A DNA stretch of 25,450 bases from a virus. Its lineage: Duplodnaviria > Caudoviricetes. Made by a program: the position numbers and the translations under genes. Below are positions 1 through 25,450 of the stretch, one piece after another (within the stretch, counting starts at the first letter, position 1; every line of letters begins with the position of its first letter). A model generated the notes under the pieces. That model saw nothing but the letters and a program-made list of their open reading frames with translations. It did not search any database and was not told the origin of the DNA. Location of the stretch: positions 1 through 25,450 of the IMG/VR virus record IMGVR_UViG_3300044448_000819; one strand, written 5' to 3'.

Positions 1-228
1 AGAGAACCTAATCGTACAAATCTTTTGCAAAGTCTTTGGAATTTGGCTACTCCTGCTTCAATGTTTCCTGATAGTATGCGTTTTGAAGGTAATCCTATAG
101 GGCTGGAGCAGGCTTTGTATGAGATTAGGCAAATGAATGATTTGGGTACGTATTTGCAGCCGGGTCAAAGTTTGAATCTTCCTCAAGGTATGGGTTATAA
201 CATTTGGGGTAAACCTACTAGAGGATGA
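1..228 (+). CDS. 5'-truncated LysM-like domain protein
   Basis: Frame is open from base 1 (REPNRTNLLQSLWNLA...). SLWNLA...EIRQMN...LQPGQSLNLP resembles the LysM consensus. The stop overlaps the terminase start (ATGA). Confidence 0.5.
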   Translation, partial: REPNRTNLLQSLWNLATPASMFPDSMRFEGNPIGLEQALYEIRQMNDLGTYLQPGQSLNLPQGMGYNIWGKPTRG

Positions 229-1115
229 GTCGTGTCGCTGATTTACGGAGAGAGGCTGAATGGCGCAGATGCGTCAACGACGAAGAGCATTTTCTTTGCA
301 ATTATTGGCATATTGCTCACCCTGCTCACGGTAGGATACTGTTTGATCTCCGAGAGGCTCAAAGATATGCGCTTGGGCATTGGGATGCTAATAGATACTC
401 GCTGACTCTTAAAGCCCGCCAGATCGGATGGTCCACTTTGGTGGCGGCCCATCAGTTTTGGCTTGCTTTTTTTCATCCTGACCAGAATATTATTGATTTG
501 TCACGTACGGAACGTGAATCTGTGTTGTTGTTAAAGAAAACTAAGTATGGTTTTAAGCATTTACCTGAGTGGATGATTGACCGTGGTCCTAAATCGTTGA
601 TGGAACATCAACAACGTATGGCATTTGACAATGGATCACAAATCACATCTATGCCTTCAGCGTCAGATCCCGCCCGTGGCGAATCTGCCTCTTTAATAGT
701 GGTGGATGAGTGGGCTTTCTTACCTAATCCTGAAGAAGCGTGGGCTTCTATTGAGCCTGTAGCCGACGTTGGTGGACGTATTATTGGTTTATCTACCGCT
801 AATGGGTCAGGTAACTTTTATCATCAACTGTGGGTTGGGGCGCAGACAGGCACAAACAAGTTTGAGCCTATGTTTTTTCCGTGGTCTGCGACGGAGGACC
901 GTGCTGATGCGTGGTATCAGGAAAAAGTTGACTCTATGTTGCCTTGGCAACTTGCTCAAGAGTATCCGACTACACCAGAAGAGGCGTTTATTAAGTCTGG
1001 TAACCCTGTTTTTGATTTAGATGTGCTAGAAAGAATGGAATCGGCGTGCCGTGAGGGTGTTTCTGGCTGGTTGCATCATATTCCGGGCGGTCCTGTAGAG
1101 TTTAGAGTGTCATGA
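225..1115 (+). CDS. terL: Terminase large subunit, N-terminal ATPase half
   Basis: Walker A LKARQIGWST, Walker B LIVVDEWAF, motif C STANG, followed by the QEYP...FIKSGNPVFD linker typical of TerL. No nuclease domain in this ORF. Confidence 0.92.
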   Translation: MSRVADLRREAEWRRCVNDEEHFLCNYWHIAHPAHGRILFDLREAQRYALGHWDANRYSLTLKARQIGWSTLVAAHQFWLAFFHPDQNIIDLSRTERESVLLLKKTKYGFKHLPEWMIDRGPKSLMEHQQRMAFDNGSQITSMPSASDPARGESASLIVVDEWAFLPNPEEAWASIEPVADVGGRIIGLSTANGSGNFYHQLWVGAQTGTNKFEPMFFPWSATEDRADAWYQEKVDSMLPWQLAQEYPTTPEEAFIKSGNPVFDLDVLERMESACREGVSGWLHHIPGGPVEFRVS

Positions 1116-1121
1116 GTTTAA
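1111..1121 (+). repeat. 11-bp direct repeat CATGAGTTTAA, copy 1 (copy 2 at 1389-1399)
   Basis: Exact match read at both ends of the ferredoxin gene; each copy contains the ATGA stop/start overlap. Confidence 0.9.
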
Positions 1122-1393
1122 TAAAAGTGTGGATAGATCAAGATTTGTGCACTGGTGACGGATTGTGCGCTGAGATCGCACCTGATGTGTTCCAAATGCA
1201 CGATGATGGTTTGGCTTATGTTAAAGAAAAAGATTGGCCGACTATTTACGGTCCTGATGGTGCGCCTAAAGGCGACCCTGCGTTAAAAATGGCTGAAGGT
1301 ATGGCTGTTGTTGAAGAGGTTGACCTTGAAGCAACTATTGAATCTGCGGAAGAGTGCCCCGGCGAATGTATTTTTATTGAGGTTGAAGCATGA
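1112..1393 (+). CDS. fdx: Monocluster [3Fe-4S]/[4Fe-4S] ferredoxin, actinobacterial type
   Basis: KVWIDQDL-CTGDGLC (CxxDxxC), APDVF, distal ECPGECI; acidic 93-aa protein; ATGA-coupled on both sides. Confidence 0.92.
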   Translation: MSLIKVWIDQDLCTGDGLCAEIAPDVFQMHDDGLAYVKEKDWPTIYGPDGAPKGDPALKMAEGMAVVEEVDLEATIESAEECPGECIFIEVEA

Positions 1394-1399
1394 GTTTAA
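1389..1399 (+). repeat. 11-bp direct repeat CATGAGTTTAA, copy 2
   Basis: Exact match to 1111-1121. Confidence 0.9.
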
Positions 1400-2064
1400 C
1401 TGTTTGGAAAGAACCAGAAACTAATCATATTTATTGTATGGGTGTTGACACCGCTGAGGGTTTAGCGCACGGAGATTTTTCTTGTATACAAATTTTAGAC
1501 GTGCGTACAGGCGAACAAGTTGCGGTTTGGCACGGGCATATTCCACCTGATGAACTAGCGGAAGAAGTTAGCAACCTTGGCTTGTGGTACAACAAGGCTT
1601 TATGCTGTGTAGAGTCAAACAACCATGGTTTGACTACTATTGTTCAGTTGCGTCATCTGGGTTACCCTAACTTGTTTAGGAAACGTTCTTTAAATCAAGT
1701 TACTAATAATGTTTCCCAAGAATTTGGTTGGAAAACAACTCGTACGTCTAAACCTTTACTAATTGATGATCTGGGAATGGCGTTACGTAGTGATGAATTA
1801 ACGTTGTATGATCGTTTTACTGTCGCTGAGTTACGTTCTTACGTTCGTAACGAGCGTGGAACCATGGCTGGTTCCCCGCATGATGACCGTGTAATGGCTT
1901 TAGCGTTGTCTAATCAAATGAGACAATACGCGTTTATGCCTGAATATGCGCCGGTTGTAGACGATTACTGGACTGTGGATTGGTTTATGAGAATGGTCAT
2001 AAATGACGATTCTGATGAGCCTAATACCAGAATTGGGGCTTCTACTACAAGAGGTTCTGTATAA
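1390..2064 (+). CDS. terL: Terminase large subunit, C-terminal RNase H-fold nuclease half
   Basis: YCMGVDTAEG...GDFS, CVESNNHG, FGWKTT..SKP and HDDRVMALAL are the conserved acidic motifs of TerL nuclease domains. Confidence 0.92.
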   Translation: MSLTVWKEPETNHIYCMGVDTAEGLAHGDFSCIQILDVRTGEQVAVWHGHIPPDELAEEVSNLGLWYNKALCCVESNNHGLTTIVQLRHLGYPNLFRKRSLNQVTNNVSQEFGWKTTRTSKPLLIDDLGMALRSDELTLYDRFTVAELRSYVRNERGTMAGSPHDDRVMALALSNQMRQYAFMPEYAPVVDDYWTVDWFMRMVINDDSDEPNTRIGASTTRGSV

Positions 2065-2385: not shown

Positions 2386-2655
2386 ATGGCGGTTTTACCA
2401 CCGTCTGCTACTTTTAAAGAGTTCAGCGCTTATTGCGCTGAAGTTAACGGACCTCAGACGGATGAAGAAATTGCTGAACTGTGGGAATGGCGACAAAAAC
2501 TTTTAGGTTTCCAAGTTATAACTGGTGCCGGGTTTAGGTCTATGCTTCCTGCGGATGAGCAGGATATGACAATTAAAGAAAGAAGCGACAAGGCTTATGC
2601 TGAGGCTACAGCCGGAGGTCGCAACATTGAACCTGTTGGAGCGCGGTGGGTGTAA
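2386..2655 (+). CDS. Hypothetical protein
   Basis: Starts 2 nt after the previous stop; TAATG-coupled to the portal gene. Confidence 0.7.
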   Translation: MAVLPPSATFKEFSAYCAEVNGPQTDEEIAELWEWRQKLLGFQVITGAGFRSMLPADEQDMTIKERSDKAYAEATAGGRNIEPVGARWV

Positions 2656-4544
2656 TGGCACGTAAAACCCGTAAAGAAAAACACGAAATAATAACTGAAA
2701 GAATTATTGCGTCTACTCGTTGGCGTGAAGAAATGGGTTATGACCAACTTTGGCAACGAATGATTGATCTTTACCGAGGAAAACATTGGCCACAAACAAC
2801 TGTTAATAACGAAGATTTAATAGCAGTAAACATTGCGTTTTCTACTATTAATGTTATTGCTCCTTCAGTTTCAGTAAATTATCCTAAAATTGTTGTAACT
2901 CCTAATAAACCAGAGGACGAAGACCGTTCTGCTTTTGTTGAAGCAGTAGTCAACTATCTTTGGAAACATCATGACTTTCGTACGCCGTTTAAACGTGCAG
3001 TAAAAGATTTCCTTATTTTTGGACATGGCTGGATTAAAGTTGGTTGGAAATTTGTTGAGCAAGAACGTGCATTAAGCGACGCTGAACGAGAAATGTATTT
3101 AGAAGAATCCATTACTGAAGCAGATCTTTTCGCTATGCAAAATCCTGACATGGCTGGAGATTTACCAACTAACGAAGATCTTTTAGCAAACCTCCCTTCT
3201 ACAGAAATGACTATTGTAGAAGATCAGCCTTTCGTAGAACGTGTTTCTCCTTTTGATATTTTGGTTGACCCAGAAGCAACTTGCATGGAAGATGCTAAAT
3301 GGATCGCTCAAAGAATTATCCGACCTTTAGAAGAAGCGCAAGCAGATAAACGATACAAACCTTCTGTAAGAAAACAATTATCTGCGGATGCGTCAATGGT
3401 TGATTCTTTACAAAACCCTGTCCGAGATGAACGCTACGTTTCCGACAAAGAACGTGTAATCATTTGGGAATACTACGACATGATGGAAAACACTATGTCT
3501 GTTTTGGCTGATTCAGGCGATGAATTTCTTTTAGACCCAACTCCTATGCCTTACGCTTACGGCCAACCTTTTGTAATGATACGAAATTACGATGTTCCTG
3601 ATTTTTTCTACCCAATGGGTGATTTAGAAGCAATAGAATCTTTGCAAGAAGAATTAGATAAAACACGAAGCCAACTTGTAAATGCTAGAAAACGTTATGG
3701 ACGTAAATATTTATATCACGAACGTTCGTTTGGTCCTGAAGGACGTGAGGCTTTAGAATCTGAACAAGATGGACGGTTTGTTCCTGTTGTAGACGAGAAC
3801 AAACCATTATCTGAAATTGTTATGCCTTTGCCGCAAGTGCCTTTATCTCCAGAAGTTTATAACACTTCTTCAATTATTGAAAATGACATTAATGTTGTTT
3901 CTGGTGTTTCAGAGTATGCTCGCGGGCAGATGCCTGAGATACGTCGTACTGCTACTGAGGCTTCAATTATTGCTGATGCTGGTAACGCTAGAGCAGCAGA
4001 CAAACTAGCGATTGTAGAACTTAGTATCGGGATGATAGCCCGTCGTGTGATCCAAGTTATGCAACAGTTTATGACTGGTGAAATGATGGCTCATGTCGCC
4101 GCTAATGGCGGAGAAAATCTTTTTATTCCGTTCTCAAGAGAAGATATTGTTGGGGAATATGATTTCAGTGTAGAGGCTGGGTCTACACAGCCAATGAATG
4201 ACACAATTAGAAAACAACAGGCTGTTTCTTTATTAAATGCTATGGCTCCTTTAATTGGAACTGTTATTGATCCTACGGCTTTAGCAAAACATGTTCTTCA
4301 GCAAGGGTTCGGTATTAAGAATCCTGATAAATTTATTATGCAACAACCTCCTATGCCTATGGGACCGGAACAAGCCGATCCTGAAGGTGGACCGGATGTT
4401 GCAATGGGTATGCCTTCGGACATGGGAGCAATGATGCCGCCTACGGCCCCTGAAGCCGGTGCTTTTGCACCGACTGGTGGTATACCCCCTGAGTTGTTAG
4501 CACAAATGCAAGGCCAAATGGGTTTGGATTTGTTTAACTTATAA
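2655..4544 (+). CDS. Portal protein (podovirus P22/T7-like)
   Basis: About 630 aa between terminase and scaffold; FVERVSPFDILVDP and SGVSEYARG motifs typical of these portals; Pro/Met/Gly-rich tail. Start moved to the ATG at 2655 (TAATG overlap). Confidence 0.85.
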   Translation: MARKTRKEKHEIITERIIASTRWREEMGYDQLWQRMIDLYRGKHWPQTTVNNEDLIAVNIAFSTINVIAPSVSVNYPKIVVTPNKPEDEDRSAFVEAVVNYLWKHHDFRTPFKRAVKDFLIFGHGWIKVGWKFVEQERALSDAEREMYLEESITEADLFAMQNPDMAGDLPTNEDLLANLPSTEMTIVEDQPFVERVSPFDILVDPEATCMEDAKWIAQRIIRPLEEAQADKRYKPSVRKQLSADASMVDSLQNPVRDERYVSDKERVIIWEYYDMMENTMSVLADSGDEFLLDPTPMPYAYGQPFVMIRNYDVPDFFYPMGDLEAIESLQEELDKTRSQLVNARKRYGRKYLYHERSFGPEGREALESEQDGRFVPVVDENKPLSEIVMPLPQVPLSPEVYNTSSIIENDINVVSGVSEYARGQMPEIRRTATEASIIADAGNARAADKLAIVELSIGMIARRVIQVMQQFMTGEMMAHVAANGGENLFIPFSREDIVGEYDFSVEAGSTQPMNDTIRKQQAVSLLNAMAPLIGTVIDPTALAKHVLQQGFGIKNPDKFIMQQPPMPMGPEQADPEGGPDVAMGMPSDMGAMMPPTAPEAGAFAPTGGIPPELLAQMQGQMGLDLFNL

Positions 4545-15664: not shown

Positions 15665-18600
15665 ATGCCTCCAACTAGAGAAGATTATTTAAACACTTTA
15701 ACAAATAACGCTGCAACTCCTGTTCCCCAAACAAATTATGCGCCTATACGTGGGTCGGCACGTAGACCAACTCCTGCTTTGACCCCTGACGTTCTTGCTG
15801 GTGTGCAAGAACGTTTAAAGCCTTGGACCACAGGAAACACTGACGCTGGAGGTGTCGGTGGTTTCATAATGAAAGCATTAGGGGCGCTTGATATGCCTCG
15901 TTCCGCTATCGCTTCCACTATTCAGGAAACTGTGGACCTATTCCAAGGAGAAGGGTTTTCTGGTTCCGACTGGTTACAGCAAACCCGTCAACATCACGGG
16001 TTTGGTGACATTATCGCTGACATGGGTATTGATGCTGGCTTAGGCGGTTGGGGTAACCGTATTCTAGGTTTCGTTGGGGATGTCGCTACTGATCCTTTGA
16101 TGTGGCTTGGCGGTATGGGTGCTTACAGCAGGGCTAGAGGTGCGGCTGGTCTTATAGACGACATGGGTGTAAGAGTGGGGCAACTTAAAAAAATGGGTGA
16201 CACTGGACCTGAGTTGGCTGCTTTGAGTGACGCTATTTCAGCGGCTGGTAAAAACAAGAGTGTTTCGGCAGCCCGTAATACTTTGATTAGAAATCATGGG
16301 GATGTTGGTGCTCGTATCGTTGATGATCTGGGTATAGGAACTGGTTTGAAAGTAAGGGTTCCGGGCACTGGACCTGTGTTGGGTCGTATTTCTCGCTCTA
16401 CTCCTTTTCTGGAAATGTCTGCTGCTCGCAGAGCAAGCCAAGTTCCGTTGTTTACTCAGCGTAGGTTGGCGGAATCTTTAGGGGATGAATCGTTAGAAAA
16501 TCTTATTAGGACTGCTTCTAGAAGGGAAGCGTTTGATGAAAGTGTCAACCAGACTGTGCGTGAAGTTGCTCGTAGAGCAGCGTACATGCCTGTTGAATTT
16601 TCTATTCCTATCCTTAAGGGAACGTTTGGGACTATTCAAGCGTTGCCGGGTTCTTTAGTTAACCGTGCTGCTGTAACAAAATTTGGTGCGGCTATGGGTC
16701 AAAGGTTGGGGACCACTCAATCTAACATGATTGCTTCTATGGCTCGTTCTGAAAACCCTGACCAAGTTATTCTTTCTTCTATTATTAAACGAGGCAATTT
16801 CAGAGGAGATGCTTTATCTTCTCGTTGGACAGACCTTGGTCAAAGAGTGAACGAGGAATTTGGGAACCGTGTCGCTACCCGTTACGGGGTTAGAGATGAT
16901 CTGGTTTTGGGTCGTTTAACCCAAAACGTTTCTGACACTGTGGTTGCTTCTATTAAAGATGGATCTATTGCTCCTGAGATGGTGGCTAAGTTAGCAAAAG
17001 ATTTTCCTAACCTTTCGTTAACGCAAATAGCGGAGATTCGCTCTTTGTTTAACGATGTGGTAAATAAGAATTTAGAAACATTCCTTTTACGACCTGATGT
17101 TTATGGACCTGATGGCAGAGTTTCTAAAATGTTTCAACAGGTAAGGGATGAGTATGGGGGATACAGTCCACAGTCTTTAGAGAGAGATGCAGTTGGCGGG
17201 TTTGATAACGGTAAAACTCTTCTTACTTATATTTGGAGAGACACTCCTGAAGATCAGATACCTGATTGGGTTAAAGGTTTGTTAGAACCTGATGTTGATT
17301 ATGCTTCTATTGCTACAGCGACTGAGGCGAGAAATAGAAACTGGTCGCGTCACTTGCAAGAGCGTTCTTTACGTCCGGCTCATTTTGATTCTACAGGAAA
17401 ATTTGTTAAGGGAACAGAGATAACTATTCCTTACAAAAATAATCCTGAAAGTTTTTTTAAGATGAAATTAAAAAGCCAACTGCCTACCGAGGGGAAAAAT
17501 CCTTTGCTTACTTCTTGGCCTAAAGGGGATGTTCGGTTTGGTATGTCTGTCCCTGAACAAGTTGATTATGCTTTGAAGCGTGCGGGTTGGCTTGGGCCTG
17601 AAGAATCTGTTTATATGCAAAGGTTCTCTGCGCGACAAAACGGTTACATTTCTTCTTTGTCTAGAGATATTCGTTTAGCAGCAAACGAACAGTATCTGGC
17701 TTCTAGAGGCATTTTGTTGAATGTGGAAGAGTTTGATAATTATTTTCAGTTGATGCAAAATTATGACAGTACCGCTCAAAGGCTAGTTAATGTTATAAGT
17801 AAGCAAGATGCTAAAATGAAAGCGAAACAATCTGAGATTGAAACCATTGCTACTGTTGAAGGAGGGCTGAAACATACTTTTGCGAATACTAGAAGGTGGC
17901 GTGAAGCCGCTGTTGCTGGCCGTGAAAAATATGCTACTGAGATAGATGATCTTCTTAAACCTTTAGATGAACTTCTTGGCGGGACTGCTGCCCGTATGGA
18001 ACTTTCTGGTTTGATTAAAAGCGGTCAAGTGTCTGAAGCGGAGATTCGTTCTTTATTGCGAGAGGCCGGTCAGACTCTCGCTGAAAGCAATCATCTTGTT
18101 GACGAGTTGTGGTCCTTACGTAAAGAATTAGATTCTTTACTAGCGAGGGCTGGTTTGCAGCCTCCTGAAAGAGCAATCGTTAGAGAGGCTGATGGCAGAT
18201 TAAGTGTTTACCACGGGCTAGAAGATCCTCCTGCTGTTTTACCGGGTGAGGAACTTTTATATGGTAAAGCATTTAATGAGAATTTGGATGTTGTTCGTGA
18301 CATCGTTCCGATTATGGAACGATTACAAGTTCTTAGTGCCCGTTCTGATGTTGTTGACCAAGGCTTAGTTAAGTTAGGGAGTGTTATAGATCAGTTAGAA
18401 ACTTTAGCCCCTAACGGAAATGTTTTTGTTGGCGACATCGCTGCACGTATCGCAGATGATATCAAATTTATTAGAGAAGATTTGATAGAGGACATTAGTT
18501 CTAAGATGGACAAGTTGATGGTTAATGATGAGACTGTCCTGAAAATGAAAGGGTATGAACATTTTTTCCGTGGAGAGTATAACCAGTATTATCCTTCTCA

Positions 18601-21600
18601 GTTGTACCGTAATTCTGAAGAAATGTTTGATTCGTTTAACGGAGTAGTTGTTGAACCAGATGGTACTCCTTCCACTCTTGGGAATTGGTTTAGAGGAAAT
18701 TCTCATGGCATACCCAGAAGCAGGGAACAGTTGGATTCGTTAAATGGTTTTGCTAGTCACCCTCGTGCTGCGGAATTGCAGAAAATTTCTGAAGATGCTT
18801 TAAAACTTAAAGAAGAAACTAAAATTTACGTATCAGTGACTGCCGATTTTGAAGATCATTCTATAGGTTGGTCAATGATTGAAGACAAACATGGGGCACT
18901 AATTCCTCTTACTGAAAACCCAGTTGAAGTATCATGGTCTGTAGCAGGTGATACACGCCTTGGTAGCGTAGTTTCTGATGCCGCTATGCAAACCGGAATC
19001 CCCGAATCAGAATTGTCACAAAGGATTATGAGCATTGTGGGGCGATGGATGAACAATACTGTTCTTCTGCACGCTGATATGTCGGGAAGAGTTTTAACTG
19101 CAACCGTTGAATCTGAAACAGCGGAATTGTTTTGGAAAAATTTAATTTCTTTAGACGGCAATTTACCTCCAGCCTTAAGAGGCGGGATAGAAGTTGACTC
19201 AATTTTTCCTGAACCAACGGATGTTTTTAAACAGTCCGCTAAAGGTAACGCTCAGTTAGAAATTAACATGAGACCTATTGAAGATTTTTTTGGAGATATT
19301 GAAGAACGCTTACTTAGAACAGACCCTGTGGGTATGAACGCAGAGCAGGCGGAAGATGTTTGGTCTGCTTTACAAGATATAACATCTCCTAGAATGGGGG
19401 TAAGTTGGCTTTCTACATTAGACCCAGAAGATCCTTTTAAACTTCAACGATTATGGAATGAAGCATGGGACGATGAAGTTTTTGAATCTGGCTTTCAAAT
19501 ATCTGGCTTTGCGGAAGATATTTTTGATGAGTCAACATTGCTTGCAAGACGGGAATTGCGAGACTACTTGGAAGAAATAAATTTCACAACAGAACTTGTA
19601 AACGTTATTAAGCGTAGAATGAATATGGATTACAGGCGGTACAACAATTACGGTAGAACTGGTTTCAGGGCAAATACTGGTCCTAATACATATACGCCTA
19701 TGACCGCACAAAGTTGGATTGACCTGCAAGGTTATAATCAATGGGATTCTGTGGAATTTATTAGGCGTGAACCTTTGTCTCATGCCCAATACGAGGCAGC
19801 CGGAATGATACCCAACCAGCAGAACGGCCTGTGGTTTATTAAAGACGGTAAAAAAATACCGGACGTTGTTGCCACCAAAGCGAACTTGTTAACTGGTTCT
19901 ACAATTTCTACACGTTTAGGTCGTGGAGTAGCAGACCCATCTGATTGGGTTCCTGATTTTAAAGAACTTGAATCTGTGATACACCACGAATTTTCTCAGA
20001 GTGTTTTATCTAAGGAATTGTTTACAAAAGCACCGGAAGATTTACAGAAAATTATTGATGCTGTCAATAATTTACGTGGCGTTACCGGCGCACGTGTTCC
20101 TTTTGTCGGCGCTACTGGTGCGGTTAGTCCTGTTGTTTCTCAAACTCCTTTTTCAGCGACAATAGATTCGTTGTTTTCTACTGCCGGAAGATTGCCGAGT
20201 AGGGTTCCTTCTTTTGAAGAAAGTTTCATATCGTTGTCAAGAGCAACAGGAGGCAACCCTACTTTAGATGACATACACAATATGTTTAAACAATTAGAGT
20301 CAGCGCGAATGACTCGTACGGCAATTTTCTCTGAAGAAGGAAAATTGCTTACATCGCTACGACCAGAAACAAGGATAGAAGATCTTATTGAGTTGTCTAC
20401 GTTGGTGAAAGAAATTGACGCTAAGTTACCTGCCGCTCGTAAAGCATACGCTGGTGCGTTAGACAGGATTTTGAATGACCAAACTGAAAAACTTTTGTAC
20501 TTGCAAAAAAGACATGCTGAGTTCGCTAAGAGCGAAGCGTACTGGCAGCAAAGATCTGGTGCTGCTGGTAAGCAGTATGCTGAGGGGCAAAGATCTTTGT
20601 ATCAAATGATGGCTAATAAAGAAAATTTAGAAACTCAACTTTTGATGAACGATGCTCGGAAAATCCAAACGCATGAAGAACTTGTTGTAAAACGTTTCGC
20701 TAAAACTGAAAACGATTTATACAATTTAAATGGTTTAGGTCAAGGAGATTTTGATATAAAAAATATTTCCATAGATGACATTCAGGCTCTTTTCAATGAG
20801 CAGCAAAGAATGTGGGGTCCGTGGAGAATTTCTGGAGATCAAGAGTTTGCCGATCAAGTCACTTATGCGCTGTTAGCAGCACAGAAGATGAATGATCGGC
20901 AACAGGTCAAAGGGTTTTTGCAGCATTACGACAGAGTTCATAATTGGATGAAAGCACAGATGGTGGCTACTCCGGGGTTCGTTACTCGTAACATTATGGG
21001 TGGGATGTTTAACATGTGGGTAGACGACATCCCACTATCTGCCACTTTGCAAACTGGTAAGATGATAGAGAAAGCATATCGTTTAGGTAAAGGCGATTTG
21101 TTGGCTGGATTAAAAGCAATAAAGAATCCTTCTGAAGAAGTCAAGTTTGCTATTGAGTTGGTTCAGCAGGGTGCTCATGCGGGTGGTCAGGCTGCTTCTG
21201 CTGTTGAACGAAATCTTTTACTTGACCGTAAACTGCAATGGATTCTAGGTACGAAGAATGGTGCCGCTAAGGGTTGGCGAGTAAACCTTAATCCTTTGGA
21301 TGCTCAGTTTGTTTTGTATTCTAGTATTCGTAACGCTAACACGTTCGCTGAGGAAATGTTAAGGCTCGCTACTGGTGTTCATGCTATGCGAATCGGCGGC
21401 ACTTTAGATGACGCTATAGAAAGCATTTACAAACTGCATTTTAATTACGGCAACTTATCTTCTTTTGAAAGCGGCGCAATGAAACGTGTGTTCCCTTTCT
21501 ATACTTGGTCACGTAACAACTTACCTCTTCAAATTTCTCAACTGGCCGCTAACCCGAAACGTTACAACAGGTTACTTAGCATTAAACGTAATTTGGAATA

Positions 21601-22201
21601 CGGAACTGAAGAAGAAGGTAATGTGCCTAGTTATTTCTTGGAACCTTTTGGTTTCCGTTTACCTTTCAGTATCGGTGGAAGTCAGGTTTACTCCGTACCT
21701 GATCTTCCTTTCCAAGATTTGTTAAGGTTTGACCCTACTGGTGTCGGGTTTGTTGATGCTGCTCAACACATTCTTTCTTCTGGTTCTCCGATGATTAAAG
21801 TCCCGTTGGAGTATTGGGGAGGTAAACAGTTCTTTAAAGGCATCCCTTACACTGGTCGTTACCAGCAGGTTCCCACTCCGTGGGAAAAAATACCGGGGTT
21901 AATGCCTGCATTAAACATGATCGGGTGGGCAGAAAAAAATAATAGGGGGGAATGGAAGATGATGGATTCCCGCATAGCGGTTATGGATGGCTTGATGCCA
22001 TACATAGGCCGTCTCCGGCGTATGATCCCTAATGAAAGCCGTTATCAAGAACGCATGATTCAAACTCTTACTTCTACTTTAGGCGGTTTAAGCATTAGGA
22101 TTAACACACCGTACGAGCAAAGGATGCAGGTGATTCGTCAAATGATTGAAGACGATAAAGAGTGGCGTGATGAACGAGACATTCGTTTTAGACAGCGCTG
22201 A
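15665..22201 (+). CDS. Very large internal virion (ejection) protein, 2178 aa
   Basis: N-terminal LGFVGDVATDPLMW and C-terminal PGFVTRN...FPFYTWSRNNLPLQ motifs recur in large podovirus ejection proteins; mostly helical; Cys-free. Confidence 0.65.
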   Translation: MPPTREDYLNTLTNNAATPVPQTNYAPIRGSARRPTPALTPDVLAGVQERLKPWTTGNTDAGGVGGFIMKALGALDMPRSAIASTIQETVDLFQGEGFSGSDWLQQTRQHHGFGDIIADMGIDAGLGGWGNRILGFVGDVATDPLMWLGGMGAYSRARGAAGLIDDMGVRVGQLKKMGDTGPELAALSDAISAAGKNKSVSAARNTLIRNHGDVGARIVDDLGIGTGLKVRVPGTGPVLGRISRSTPFLEMSAARRASQVPLFTQRRLAESLGDESLENLIRTASRREAFDESVNQTVREVARRAAYMPVEFSIPILKGTFGTIQALPGSLVNRAAVTKFGAAMGQRLGTTQSNMIASMARSENPDQVILSSIIKRGNFRGDALSSRWTDLGQRVNEEFGNRVATRYGVRDDLVLGRLTQNVSDTVVASIKDGSIAPEMVAKLAKDFPNLSLTQIAEIRSLFNDVVNKNLETFLLRPDVYGPDGRVSKMFQQVRDEYGGYSPQSLERDAVGGFDNGKTLLTYIWRDTPEDQIPDWVKGLLEPDVDYASIATATEARNRNWSRHLQERSLRPAHFDSTGKFVKGTEITIPYKNNPESFFKMKLKSQLPTEGKNPLLTSWPKGDVRFGMSVPEQVDYALKRAGWLGPEESVYMQRFSARQNGYISSLSRDIRLAANEQYLASRGILLNVEEFDNYFQLMQNYDSTAQRLVNVISKQDAKMKAKQSEIETIATVEGGLKHTFANTRRWREAAVAGREKYATEIDDLLKPLDELLGGTAARMELSGLIKSGQVSEAEIRSLLREAGQTLAESNHLVDELWSLRKELDSLLARAGLQPPERAIVREADGRLSVYHGLEDPPAVLPGEELLYGKAFNENLDVVRDIVPIMERLQVLSARSDVVDQGLVKLGSVIDQLETLAPNGNVFVGDIAARIADDIKFIREDLIEDISSKMDKLMVNDETVLKMKGYEHFFRGEYNQYYPSQLYRNSEEMFDSFNGVVVEPDGTPSTLGNWFRGNSHGIPRSREQLDSLNGFASHPRAAELQKISEDALKLKEETKIYVSVTADFEDHSIGWSMIEDKHGALIPLTENPVEVSWSVAGDTRLGSVVSDAAMQTGIPESELSQRIMSIVGRWMNNTVLLHADMSGRVLTATVESETAELFWKNLISLDGNLPPALRGGIEVDSIFPEPTDVFKQSAKGNAQLEINMRPIEDFFGDIEERLLRTDPVGMNAEQAEDVWSALQDITSPRMGVSWLSTLDPEDPFKLQRLWNEAWDDEVFESGFQISGFAEDIFDESTLLARRELRDYLEEINFTTELVNVIKRRMNMDYRRYNNYGRTGFRANTGPNTYTPMTAQSWIDLQGYNQWDSVEFIRREPLSHAQYEAAGMIPNQQNGLWFIKDGKKIPDVVATKANLLTGSTISTRLGRGVADPSDWVPDFKELESVIHHEFSQSVLSKELFTKAPEDLQKIIDAVNNLRGVTGARVPFVGATGAVSPVVSQTPFSATIDSLFSTAGRLPSRVPSFEESFISLSRATGGNPTLDDIHNMFKQLESARMTRTAIFSEEGKLLTSLRPETRIEDLIELSTLVKEIDAKLPAARKAYAGALDRILNDQTEKLLYLQKRHAEFAKSEAYWQQRSGAAGKQYAEGQRSLYQMMANKENLETQLLMNDARKIQTHEELVVKRFAKTENDLYNLNGLGQGDFDIKNISIDDIQALFNEQQRMWGPWRISGDQEFADQVTYALLAAQKMNDRQQVKGFLQHYDRVHNWMKAQMVATPGFVTRNIMGGMFNMWVDDIPLSATLQTGKMIEKAYRLGKGDLLAGLKAIKNPSEEVKFAIELVQQGAHAGGQAASAVERNLLLDRKLQWILGTKNGAAKGWRVNLNPLDAQFVLYSSIRNANTFAEEMLRLATGVHAMRIGGTLDDAIESIYKLHFNYGNLSSFESGAMKRVFPFYTWSRNNLPLQISQLAANPKRYNRLLSIKRNLEYGTEEEGNVPSYFLEPFGFRLPFSIGGSQVYSVPDLPFQDLLRFDPTGVGFVDAAQHILSSGSPMIKVPLEYWGGKQFFKGIPYTGRYQQVPTPWEKIPGLMPALNMIGWAEKNNRGEWKMMDSRIAVMDGLMPYIGRLRRMIPNESRYQERMIQTLTSTLGGLSIRINTPYEQRMQVIRQMIEDDKEWRDERDIRFRQR

Positions 22202-23729: not shown

Positions 23730-24028
23730 TGGATAAACAATGGGATGAATGGTGCGAGGAATACTCGTATCTCGGTGAGGAAATCTTCAAAGATTTAGCC
23801 ACCGAATCTCACTTGTTTGATACTAGAGATGGGGTTCACGCCAAGTTCACTCAGGATGGTGAACTTGGCTTACTTCTTGTCTTTGATCCAGATGAGGCTG
23901 ACGGTTTATTAGCCGCTTACTATGCAGGGTTGGATGGGGTTGAAGAGGCTACAGCCACGTTTGCAATGTGGGCTGGTTCTTTGATGGGGATGATTCGCCA
24001 CATTATGGATTCTTTAGAGGATTATTAA
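23729..24028 (+). CDS. Acidic hypothetical protein
   Basis: TAATG-coupled to the holin; last gene of the + strand operon. Confidence 0.65.
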   Translation: MDKQWDEWCEEYSYLGEEIFKDLATESHLFDTRDGVHAKFTQDGELGLLLVFDPDEADGLLAAYYAGLDGVEEATATFAMWAGSLMGMIRHIMDSLEDY

Positions 24029-24402
24029 AAGTCTCTGTACATCCATCTCTGAACTCTTTTATCTTGGCTTAGGTCTAACATGAGTCTGCGCCTGATCTTG
24101 TCTCTGCGTCGTGCTAGAGATGTTTTAGGTATGTTGACTATCTTTCCTGTGACCCGTAAGGAGAGATTCGCTACGAATATTAGGTTGAATATGAATCTAT
24201 CTTCTTCAGGTAGGTTATCTATTGCTTCTCCGACTGCTTCTTTAAGATCGGAGGTTGCTTCTATGGTGCTGATTAAAGGTTGGTCGCCGGGTGCAAGCAC
24301 CATGAGTTGTTCTAACTCTGTTTCATAGCGGTGTGTTTTCGCTCCGGCTGTTGATAATTCTTCGTCTGTAAAGTTTTTTACTAGGTCTTTTCTTCTTGCC
24401 AT
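24025..24402 (-). CDS. Stand-alone sigma-70 region 4-like HTH protein (putative late transcription activator)
   Basis: AIDNLPEEDRFIFNL...NLSLRVTGKIVNIPKTSLARRRDKIRRRL fits the sigma4 consensus; 125 aa with no recognisable region 2. Confidence 0.75.
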   Translation of the reverse strand: MARRKDLVKNFTDEELSTAGAKTHRYETELEQLMVLAPGDQPLISTIEATSDLKEAVGEAIDNLPEEDRFIFNLIFVANLSLRVTGKIVNIPKTSLARRRDKIRRRLMLDLSQDKRVQRWMYRDF

Positions 24403-24917
24403 TGTCCATTTTTGTTATATCCCTCAAATTCTGTGACGCTTTTTAACAGAGTTGATGCGATATTCCTTGTGGAGTCTGGCGCATAACTTGACGGTTTTCC
24501 TTTTTCCCACGCTTCATCGTGATCTATCCAGCCTAAAATATCTATGCTGCGTAGTTCCGGTGGTTCTGGTTGCGCTACGAAAAGGATAAGCCCTTTACCT
24601 AATTGACGTTTACGCACAGCCGCATCGGGGCTGGTGCGTATCCGTCTAACTTCTATGTTGGTTCCCACATCTGGCAGGTCTTTGTATTGTTTGTGTTTAC
24701 TACCTGACCAAACGTGACCACCCCAGTATTGGTTGATTGCTTTTGCTACAGCGAGTTCGCAAACTGCTGCTGCTACTTGTGCTGTGCGGTTATCTTCCAT
24801 GCGGAAATGATCGTAATGCTTGGCATCTGCTTTGCCCCAGTTCTCAGCGTAACGCCGGATACCTACTTGGCTAGCGTGCTCATATTCCCACGGTTCTAAT
24901 TCAATCCGTACTGTCAT
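24381..24917 (-). CDS. Hypothetical protein, possible PD-(D/E)XK nuclease fold
   Basis: CELAVAK...PDVG..IEVR spacing resembles E...PD...ExK. Start could be 24917 or 24923. Confidence 0.5.
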   Translation of the reverse strand: MTVRIELEPWEYEHASQVGIRRYAENWGKADAKHYDHFRMEDNRTAQVAAAVCELAVAKAINQYWGGHVWSGSKHKQYKDLPDVGTNIEVRRIRTSPDAAVRKRQLGKGLILFVAQPEPPELRSIDILGWIDHDEAWEKGKPSSYAPDSTRNIASTLLKSVTEFEGYNKNGQWQEEKT

Positions 24918-25269
24918 TTGCATCTACCTTTACTGCCGATATGCGGACGACTTGTTTGTCGTCCACCCATGCGACTTTGTTTAGAGCATCTAAAGTTAAT
25001 TTGACATAGTTGTCTAAGTCCCCTCGTAACGTTTTAGCGTCATGAGGAGACTCTAGCACAGTTAAGACTGTCTCTGTGGGGGAATAGCGTAAAGTTATTT
25101 CCACAGGACAATCTAAAGTTTCTCCTACTTGTTCTTCCCACGCCTGTTTCACATAATCTTCTGCTTCCATCGTTGTCTTGGGAGTAAACCCATGCCCTTT
25201 TTTTGTCCAACGAGGTCGTGCTTTTACTTTCGGTCTGCGGTTTATTATTACTGTGTGCGCTTTAGTCAT
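24901..25269 (-). CDS. rusA: RusA-family Holliday junction resolvase
   Basis: PKVKARPR and GDLDNYVKLTLDALN..AWVDDKQVV catalytic motif; ATG at 25269 overlaps the upstream stop. Confidence 0.88.
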   Translation of the reverse strand: MTKAHTVIINRRPKVKARPRWTKKGHGFTPKTTMEAEDYVKQAWEEQVGETLDCPVEITLRYSPTETVLTVLESPHDAKTLRGDLDNYVKLTLDALNKVAWVDDKQVVRISAVKVDANDSTD

Positions 25270-25450
25270 TCTTCCATTCCTCTCACTGACCGTTGGGCAC
25301 GAACTACAGTTTCCCACAAACGTTTTCTGCCATCTGGTCGGTTGGCAAACTTGCCTCCCCAATCTCTGTCGGCGGATTCCAGTTCAGTCATTATGTCGGC
25401 TGATCCAAATCCTTGTTTATGCATGGCGCAAGCAAGAGAGAACAAAGTAC
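25266..25450 (-). CDS. C-terminal end of a probable primase/primase-polymerase (truncated by the window)
   Basis: Open frame TLFSLACAMHKQGFGSADIMTELESADRDWGGKFANRPDGRKRLWETVVRA resembles helical C-terminal domains of RepB-like phage primases; ATGA overlap with rusA. Confidence 0.45.
   Translation of the reverse strand, partial: TLFSLACAMHKQGFGSADIMTELESADRDWGGKFANRPDGRKRLWETVVRAQRSVRGMEE

Follow-up and report, generated by a model that had tools for sequence, protein, structure and literature searches.

Models of the packaging motor assume that in the large terminase subunit (TerL) the ATPase and nuclease domains are covalently linked through a hinge. In phage T4, the two domains reportedly do not package DNA when made separately. 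The hinge of T4 gp17 comprises residues 354-364, and the T4 work emphasises this covalent hinge and the interdomain track (PMC3074133). A motor built of two chains must therefore solve a real problem. TerL coding sequences can be interrupted, as in herpesvirus UL15, where the terminase gene is distributed over exons. Other examples are the terminase introns of the Bastillevirinae (PMC11878797) and the bypassing proposed for the terminase of Streptomyces phage Hau3 (PMC10732093). In all of these intron, intein or bypass terminases a single chain results after splicing or recoding. A TerL with ATPase and nuclease on two overlapping genes is reported for most Arthrobacter phages of cluster AY (PMC11920828, PMC12820723; gp2/gp3 in BillyTP and BlueShadow), and BillyTP is annotated accordingly. 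A plain two-gene TerL is thus not without precedent, contrary to the premise of a preliminary description of the present locus. In the literature covered, which includes few subscription journals, no paper was found that deals with the clade described here, with cargo in the gap of a split TerL or with a ferredoxin within TerL.

The window analysed here is a stretch of 25,450 nucleotides, a 25-kb fragment, 66% complete, of an uncultured marine phage (IMG/VR record IMGVR_UViG_3300044448_000819). It contains a cassette of three overlapping genes, coding for a TerL ATPase, a ferredoxin and a TerL nuclease (Table 1), downstream of which lie portal, scaffold, capsid, tail and lysis genes.

Table 1. 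Features of the terminase cassette and its surroundings in the window
Feature	Position	Strand	Basis
TerL ATPase gene, 296 aa, T4-gp17-like	225..1115	+	Pfam/PHROG matches, motifs
Ferredoxin gene, 93 aa, single-cluster, Acidimicrobiia-like, mobile cargo gene	1112..1393	+	Pfam, motif
TerL nuclease gene, 224 aa, RNase H fold, D20/E75/D166	1390..2064	+	PHROG, motifs, fold of fused relative
ATGA overlap, ATPase stop / ferredoxin start	1112..1115	+	sequence
ATGA overlap, ferredoxin stop / nuclease start	1390..1393	+	sequence
GAGG Shine-Dalgarno-like word, 7 nt 5' of nuclease start, within the last codons of the ferredoxin gene	1379..1382	+	sequence
C-terminal ~37 codons of ATPase gene, putative docking arm for nuclease chain	1002..1112	+	fused-relative model, blastp mapping, conservation
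11-nt direct repeat, copy 1, over ferredoxin start codon	1111..1121	+	sequence
11-nt direct repeat, copy 2, over nuclease start codon	1389..1399	+	sequence
Portal gene, SU10/P22-like, opens head module after terminase genes	2655..4544	+	Pfam/PHROG

The three reading frames and their ATGA overlaps, as laid out in the preliminary description, are confirmed. The ATPase matches Pfam Terminase_6N (E 1.6e-7) and the PHROG terminase large subunit (E 2.2e-28), the ferredoxin matches Pfam Fer4_15 (E 8.8e-17), and the nuclease matches a PHROG terminase (E 3e-20) but nothing in Pfam. The best solved relative, both by profile (E 1e-54) and by fold (Z 26.9 for the ATPase, 23.1 for the nuclease), is the one-chain T4-type terminase (T4 gp17, 3cpe/3ezk/2o0h, with the RB49 nuclease domain 3c6a), with which Walker B, the coupling motif and the D/E/D triad are shared. 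Through a profile of fused relatives, D20, E75 and D166 of the nuclease align with D401, E458 and D542 of T4 gp17. The earlier statement that the catalytic motifs are intact holds for this triad and for Walker B (D161-E162), with a refinement for Walker A, where the T4 lysine is displaced: the motif reads K63-A-R-Q-I-G-W-S-T, with W69 at the position of the lysine, a K63-x-R65 form that we take to be a deviant Walker A. Residues K63, R65, D161-E162 and D20/E75/D166 are invariant in 49 aligned relatives. The locus encodes an N-terminal ASCE ATPase with Walker A, Walker B and coupling motif, and an RNase H-fold nuclease with D/E/D triad; the two domains are not carried on one hinge-joined polypeptide, since a stop and a separate start lie between them in 166 of 166 related contigs. 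As judged by its motifs the split enzyme would work like a T4-type TerL, but it is not a one-chain member of that group. Unlike T4, the phages concerned have ~38-kb podovirus-like genomes.

Both junctions are bridged by single contigs in three of four runs (X3, 1067-2100; X4, 966-2100; X9, 675-2100), which come from three different studies, and hence the window is not a chimera, the outcome on which the preliminary description had made its split terminase depend. The remaining run (X1) contributes short pieces only, one across each junction. The same three-gene order is present in three independent IMG/VR contigs (L001, L003 and L004). The datasets that best match the window are all seawater or marine metagenomes, and no RNA dataset is among those listed for positions 200-2100. 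Promoter-like sites are not in excess in positions 1-2800 (3, versus 5.2 in shuffles). The record starts within the gene 5' of the ATPase. For this reason the likely small terminase subunit (TerS) gene is absent from the window; in relatives an HTH protein (weak PF13022) is encoded 5' of a cargo region (L001:10-411, L086:1465-1932) and is likely the small terminase.

To place the split among related terminases, the best 80 IMG/VR loci were taken for each of the three proteins (out of 592, 518 and 327 confirmed matches), giving 217 distinct contigs once 19 duplicated loci and that of the window itself had been removed. These loci were chosen by similarity to the window, so that the counts are not a census, and many are near-copies; they contain 125 distinct full-length ATPase/nuclease pairs, window included. 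Both halves of TerL are present in 166 contigs, 44 contain no TerL, five only the ATPase and two only the nuclease. In each of the 166 the protein is split, always between V-E-F-R and L-x-V-W in the same loop, and within the best 80 loci of the ATPase query alone the split is found in all 80. Fused relatives of 515-545 aa exist, with identities of up to 77% to the ATPase and up to 54% to the nuclease; the mean identity is 84% in the split set versus 49% in the fused set. In trees of either half, the split forms make up one side of a single branch (SH-aLRT 99), requiring one change among fused forms. Hand-picked rows (33 split, 29 fused) went into these trees, which come from quick searches with midpoint rooting; other trees are similar. 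By these trees, the split forms are a clade of single origin that lies within the one-chain T4-gp17-like terminases. The stem leading to this clade measures 0.55 in the nuclease tree versus 0.12-0.21 in the ATPase trees, the sampling of which differs, as if the nuclease half had evolved faster around the fission. Among cultured phages none is close: the best INPHARED match (56%/44% identical) is an uncultured spring phage annotated with one TerL. In a search of 50%-representatives, most of the best 150 matches are full length, and the short ones (nine were read) are possibly contig fragments or wrong starts and are not counted as further fissions.

The two genes appear to be the only terminase of these phages. 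A full TerL profile matches only the two halves in all five near-complete relatives (95-100%). Comparison of the window with L001, L003, L004, L002 and L005 yields dN/dS values of 0.016-0.045 for the ATPase and 0.032-0.092 for the nuclease (about 0.02-0.09 overall), and reaches 0.2 at most in a single pair of low divergence, which shows strong purifying selection on both halves. The two-subunit TerL proposed in the preliminary description is supported by these data. Taken together, two genes are the fixed form of TerL in this clade; they probably give two chains that combine into one motor, and the ferredoxin is likely a swappable passenger at a translationally coupled junction.

To understand where the cut falls in the fold, the break was mapped by blastp onto an AlphaFold2 model of the fused relative P0005 (pLDDT 90.5), which stands in for the window's own two chains. 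The model contains helices 252-259 and 266-271, strands 278-286 and 289-294, a loop 295-303 and a strand 304-306, followed by the catalytic strand. The ATPase of the window ends at model residue 295 and the nuclease begins at 302-304. Solved ATPase-domain crystals align to residues 3-257/261 of the model, whereas isolated nuclease-domain crystals (G20c, RB49, P74-26 and P22) align from residues 257-262 onward, including 5m1o (Z 24.1, rmsd 1.8, 182 aligned residues) and the RB49 domain 3c6a (Z 23.1, rmsd 2.0, 186 aligned residues). The break is thus predicted to lie ~35 residues past the ATPase/nuclease boundary, beyond the hinge and inside the nuclease domain, in the loop after a β-hairpin. 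The structure alignment (VIA) reports the first and last aligned residue of each match. In T4 numbering the first residue of the nuclease gene corresponds to about 382. The length of the loop varies among fused relatives.

As a consequence, the tail of the ATPase chain corresponds, in the fused model, to the start of the nuclease domain: a short strand, a helix and a β-hairpin ending in V-E-F-R. In 49 split ATPases G278, G281 and E292 are invariant, and positions 282, 283, 291 and 293 are hydrophobic. On the basis of the model, the nuclease chain probably docks on this helix-hairpin arm by fragment complementation. It is less probable, and on balance unlikely, that the two chains are joined only through the portal or the DNA-bound motor, as an ATPase ring with a separately recruited nuclease, and that the tail is mainly a translation signal. 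Consistent with such an arrangement, the codon of E292 is GAG in 125 of 151 sequences versus 53% at other Glu codons, and a Shine-Dalgarno-like word occurs within 22 nt of the nuclease start in 116 of the 166 contigs, a raw count. Translation signals account for part of the conservation of the tail, and the split set is also less diverse than the fused one. In addition, the halves diverge unequally in close pairs: between the window and L001 the nuclease is identical, while dS amounts to 0.18 for the ferredoxin and 0.37 for the ATPase. The halves can thus be re-assorted, and by this comparison recent recombination swaps terminase halves across the junction. However, the helix-hairpin pattern of glycines and hydrophobic residues is not explained by Shine-Dalgarno pairing, the tail belongs to the nuclease domain in solved structures, and the break position is identical in all 166 contigs.

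The ATPase chain is predicted to keep the hinge together with the nuclease domain's opening helix and hairpin. Under the docking arrangement, the nuclease chain would attach to this arm, such that the mechanical and allosteric link would be kept without a covalent bond. Ribosomes would be restarted by the stop/start overlaps and the Shine-Dalgarno-like word, giving joint synthesis of the two chains, and of any cargo, late in infection.

A full-length TerL could, alternatively, arise by recoding or splicing, i.e., by a frameshift, by ribosome bypass or by excision of the ferredoxin stretch from the mRNA. Excision of the stretch between the two 11-nt repeats would recreate the usual junction of the clade, in which an overlap matching 1112..1115 joins the ATPase stop and the nuclease start, but the stop codon would still be retained. 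Bypassing, as proposed for the Hau3 terminase, has a precedent, and 157 of 158 cargo-free junctions are just one step out of frame. The steps nevertheless differ: the nuclease start lies in the -1 frame relative to the ATPase in 82 of the 166 contigs, in the +1 frame in 75, in frame behind a stop in one and behind a whole gene in eight, with inserts of 127, 265-274 and 826-841 nt within one clade. No single recoding mechanism fits all of these, and the occurrence of all three frames argues against recoding. A programmed frameshift or bypass would be expected to use one conserved frame and a slippery or take-off site; of these, slippery heptamers were tested, and a phased X XXY YYZ heptamer is found in the last 48 nt in none of the 166 contigs. 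Every nuclease gene has its own ATG or GTG (166/166). The gap between the halves is fully protein-coding, and at the gathering threshold no Rfam family is found in the whole window, so that by this test a self-splicing intron is absent. The RNA of the junction plus ferredoxin folds no better than shuffles (z -0.82). Production of a full-length TerL is on these grounds very unlikely, although low-level frameshifting in cargo-free members is possible. The locus resembles the Bastillevirinae, Hau3 and UL15 terminases in that the TerL coding sequence is interrupted, and differs from them in the lack of an intron family, in the use of three frames and in the whole unrelated genes that occupy the gap.

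The ferredoxin is one of several occupants of the junction. Among the 166 contigs a ferredoxin is present in three, a 43-aa CxxC..CxxC (zinc ribbon) protein in two (L027:4885-5019, and L035) and a PAPS-reductase-like protein in three (L055:4873-5721 and L062:2626-3459/L064, two genes 51% identical to each other, with sub-threshold Pfam scores), while 158 have no cargo. Every insert retains the 4-nt overlap at both ends. Four sister pairs with near-identical halves differ in the presence of cargo (L004/L005, L055/L054, L062/L065 and L027/L036). Comparison of these loci shows that the junction has gained and lost three cargo genes that are unrelated to one another. The ferredoxin is not the cause of the split, which is present in all 166 contigs. 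Each cargo type is also found upstream of TerL in other relatives, between TerL and the likely TerS gene; this region 5' of TerL varies greatly and serves these phages for cargo in general. The ferredoxin is likely a passenger gene, gained and lost at the junction, and not a component of the motor. In L001 the 11-nt repeat is imperfect, and L001, L003 and L004 have in common only its first 7 nt from the ATG; at the other cargo types it is reduced to ATGA or GTGA. A target-site duplication at the junctions is ruled out by this shrinkage, and the 7 nt amount at most to microhomology around start codons.

By sequence, the ferredoxin itself is of the single-cluster [4Fe-4S]/[3Fe-4S] type with C-x2-(C/D)-x2-C and a distal C-P. 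Its C-x2-D-x2-C ... C-P motif is shared with the Pyrococcus-type ferredoxin 1siz (Fer4_15; E 6e-8), one of the single-cluster bacterial ferredoxins with an Asp ligand, from which the Acidimicrobiia and phage copies differ by an insertion of ~25 residues and, here, by their occurrence as mobile phage cargo. All 181 copies from phages and hosts contain the motif CTGDG[LI]C. The closest copies are found in L083 (95%) and L084 (92%), which represent another phage type and contain ParB-like, nuclease and methyltransferase genes next to the ferredoxin; the loci as retrieved encode no such TerL. The ferredoxin is itself under purifying selection (dN/dS 0.05-0.09; 0.077-0.087 in the comparison of the window with its close relatives). 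The three junction cargo types are all cysteine-rich and likely bind metal or Fe-S clusters, which may mirror the general gene content of these phages, as WhiB and 2OG-Fe(II) oxygenase-like genes are present too.

Could the ferredoxin be a functional partner of the motor, e.g., by sensing the redox state and adjusting packaging or cutting to it? The overlaps on both of its sides, the purifying selection, the cysteine-rich nature of all three cargo types and its frequent position beside or inside TerL (inside in three and upstream in 11 of the 80 closest ATPase loci) are compatible with this. In the other 66 of these best 80 loci, however, no ferredoxin is seen; it is unmatched in three of the five near-complete relatives and missing from L005, the near-identical sister of L004; unrelated genes substitute for it in the slot; its closest homologs lie in loci without such a TerL; and the region upstream of TerL accepts cargo in general. 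A coupling of the ferredoxin to the motor, or redox sensing, as considered in the preliminary description, is therefore highly improbable, whereas its other suggestion, an auxiliary gene with coupled late expression, is plausible in view of the conserved overlaps and the selection. As a passenger, the ferredoxin may provide the infected Acidimicrobiia cell with a general electron carrier or an Fe-S store, and would be selected as a protein while being dispensable for packaging.

Nothing but the unusual layout would suggest that the cassette is an artefact of assembly or a terminase that has decayed into pseudogenes; both readings can be dismissed in view of the bridged junctions, the 166 split contigs, the strong purifying selection and the absence of another TerL from the complete relatives.

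Comparison with the cluster AY phages suggests that TerL has been divided more than once. Apart from the use of two overlapping genes, the AY nuclease gene also starts at a 'VW..P' strand, ~15-20 residues before the first catalytic Asp (weak, E 0.43). The V-W-x-x-P strand start in BillyTP gp3 (L318:1648-1720) is a weak hint of a possible convergent fission site. In contrast, the sequences of the BillyTP halves cannot be aligned with those of the present family (blastp E 0.056 or worse; below zero bits with a 60-sequence family profile, for this one AY phage), which argues for an independent fission in another TerL family. Moreover, the AY genes are described as consecutive and without cargo, and belong to temperate soil siphoviruses, unlike the marine Acidimicrobiia phages described here.

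The lasting result is that the motor is fixed as two genes, together with the position of the cut, the two-gene TerL as such being already known from the AY phages. A large clade under selection and cut at a defined loop provides a natural experiment on the need for a covalent link, on nuclease number and on the control of cutting, and its T4-like fold permits direct comparison with the best-studied motor. The junction is a tolerated insertion site within an essential late operon. As these phages have no full-length TerL marker, surveys and trees based on TerL can miss or mis-call them. A wider reading is tentative, and rather less than even in likelihood: in this abundant marine clade the ATPase ring would hold the hinge and docking arm while the nuclease core is detachable, the number of nucleases per motor and headful cutting would be set by coupling at the junction and tuned by the cargo, and unrelated TerL fissions would converge on the same intra-nuclease loop.

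The hosts of these phages are likely Acidimicrobiia, as indicated by the ferredoxin. Of its 80 best cellular matches, in a search of 10 of the 64 parts of the collection, 57 are from Acidimicrobiia or a subgroup, 16 from broader Actinomycetota, three from other taxa and four unnamed. A split TerL with an upstream ferredoxin is present in one of 401 Acidimicrobiia genomes, a genome of 0.6 Mb. No other genome in this set has the ATPase, so that the survey yields no evidence of an integrated prophage. WhiB is encoded in two of the five near-complete relatives, including L004, which has the ferredoxin inside TerL. Marine Acidimicrobiia phages with WhiB have been described (PMC7771536, PMC10205998), and the accessible parts of these papers contain no mention of a split terminase or a ferredoxin.

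Some further genes of the window deserve mention. Two small genes of no known family (2117-2383 and 2386-2655) are kept between the nuclease and portal genes in the relatives examined. An NCBIfam search of 12 proteins assigned no family. A 2178-aa open reading frame (15665-22201) without Pfam, PHROG or NCBIfam match probably codes for an internal virion protein, and its first 1000 aa are similar to unnamed viral clusters in the ESM Atlas (0.95). On the minus strand, at 24025-25362, a small sigma-70 region 4-like protein and a RusA resolvase mark the start of a gene block of opposite orientation.
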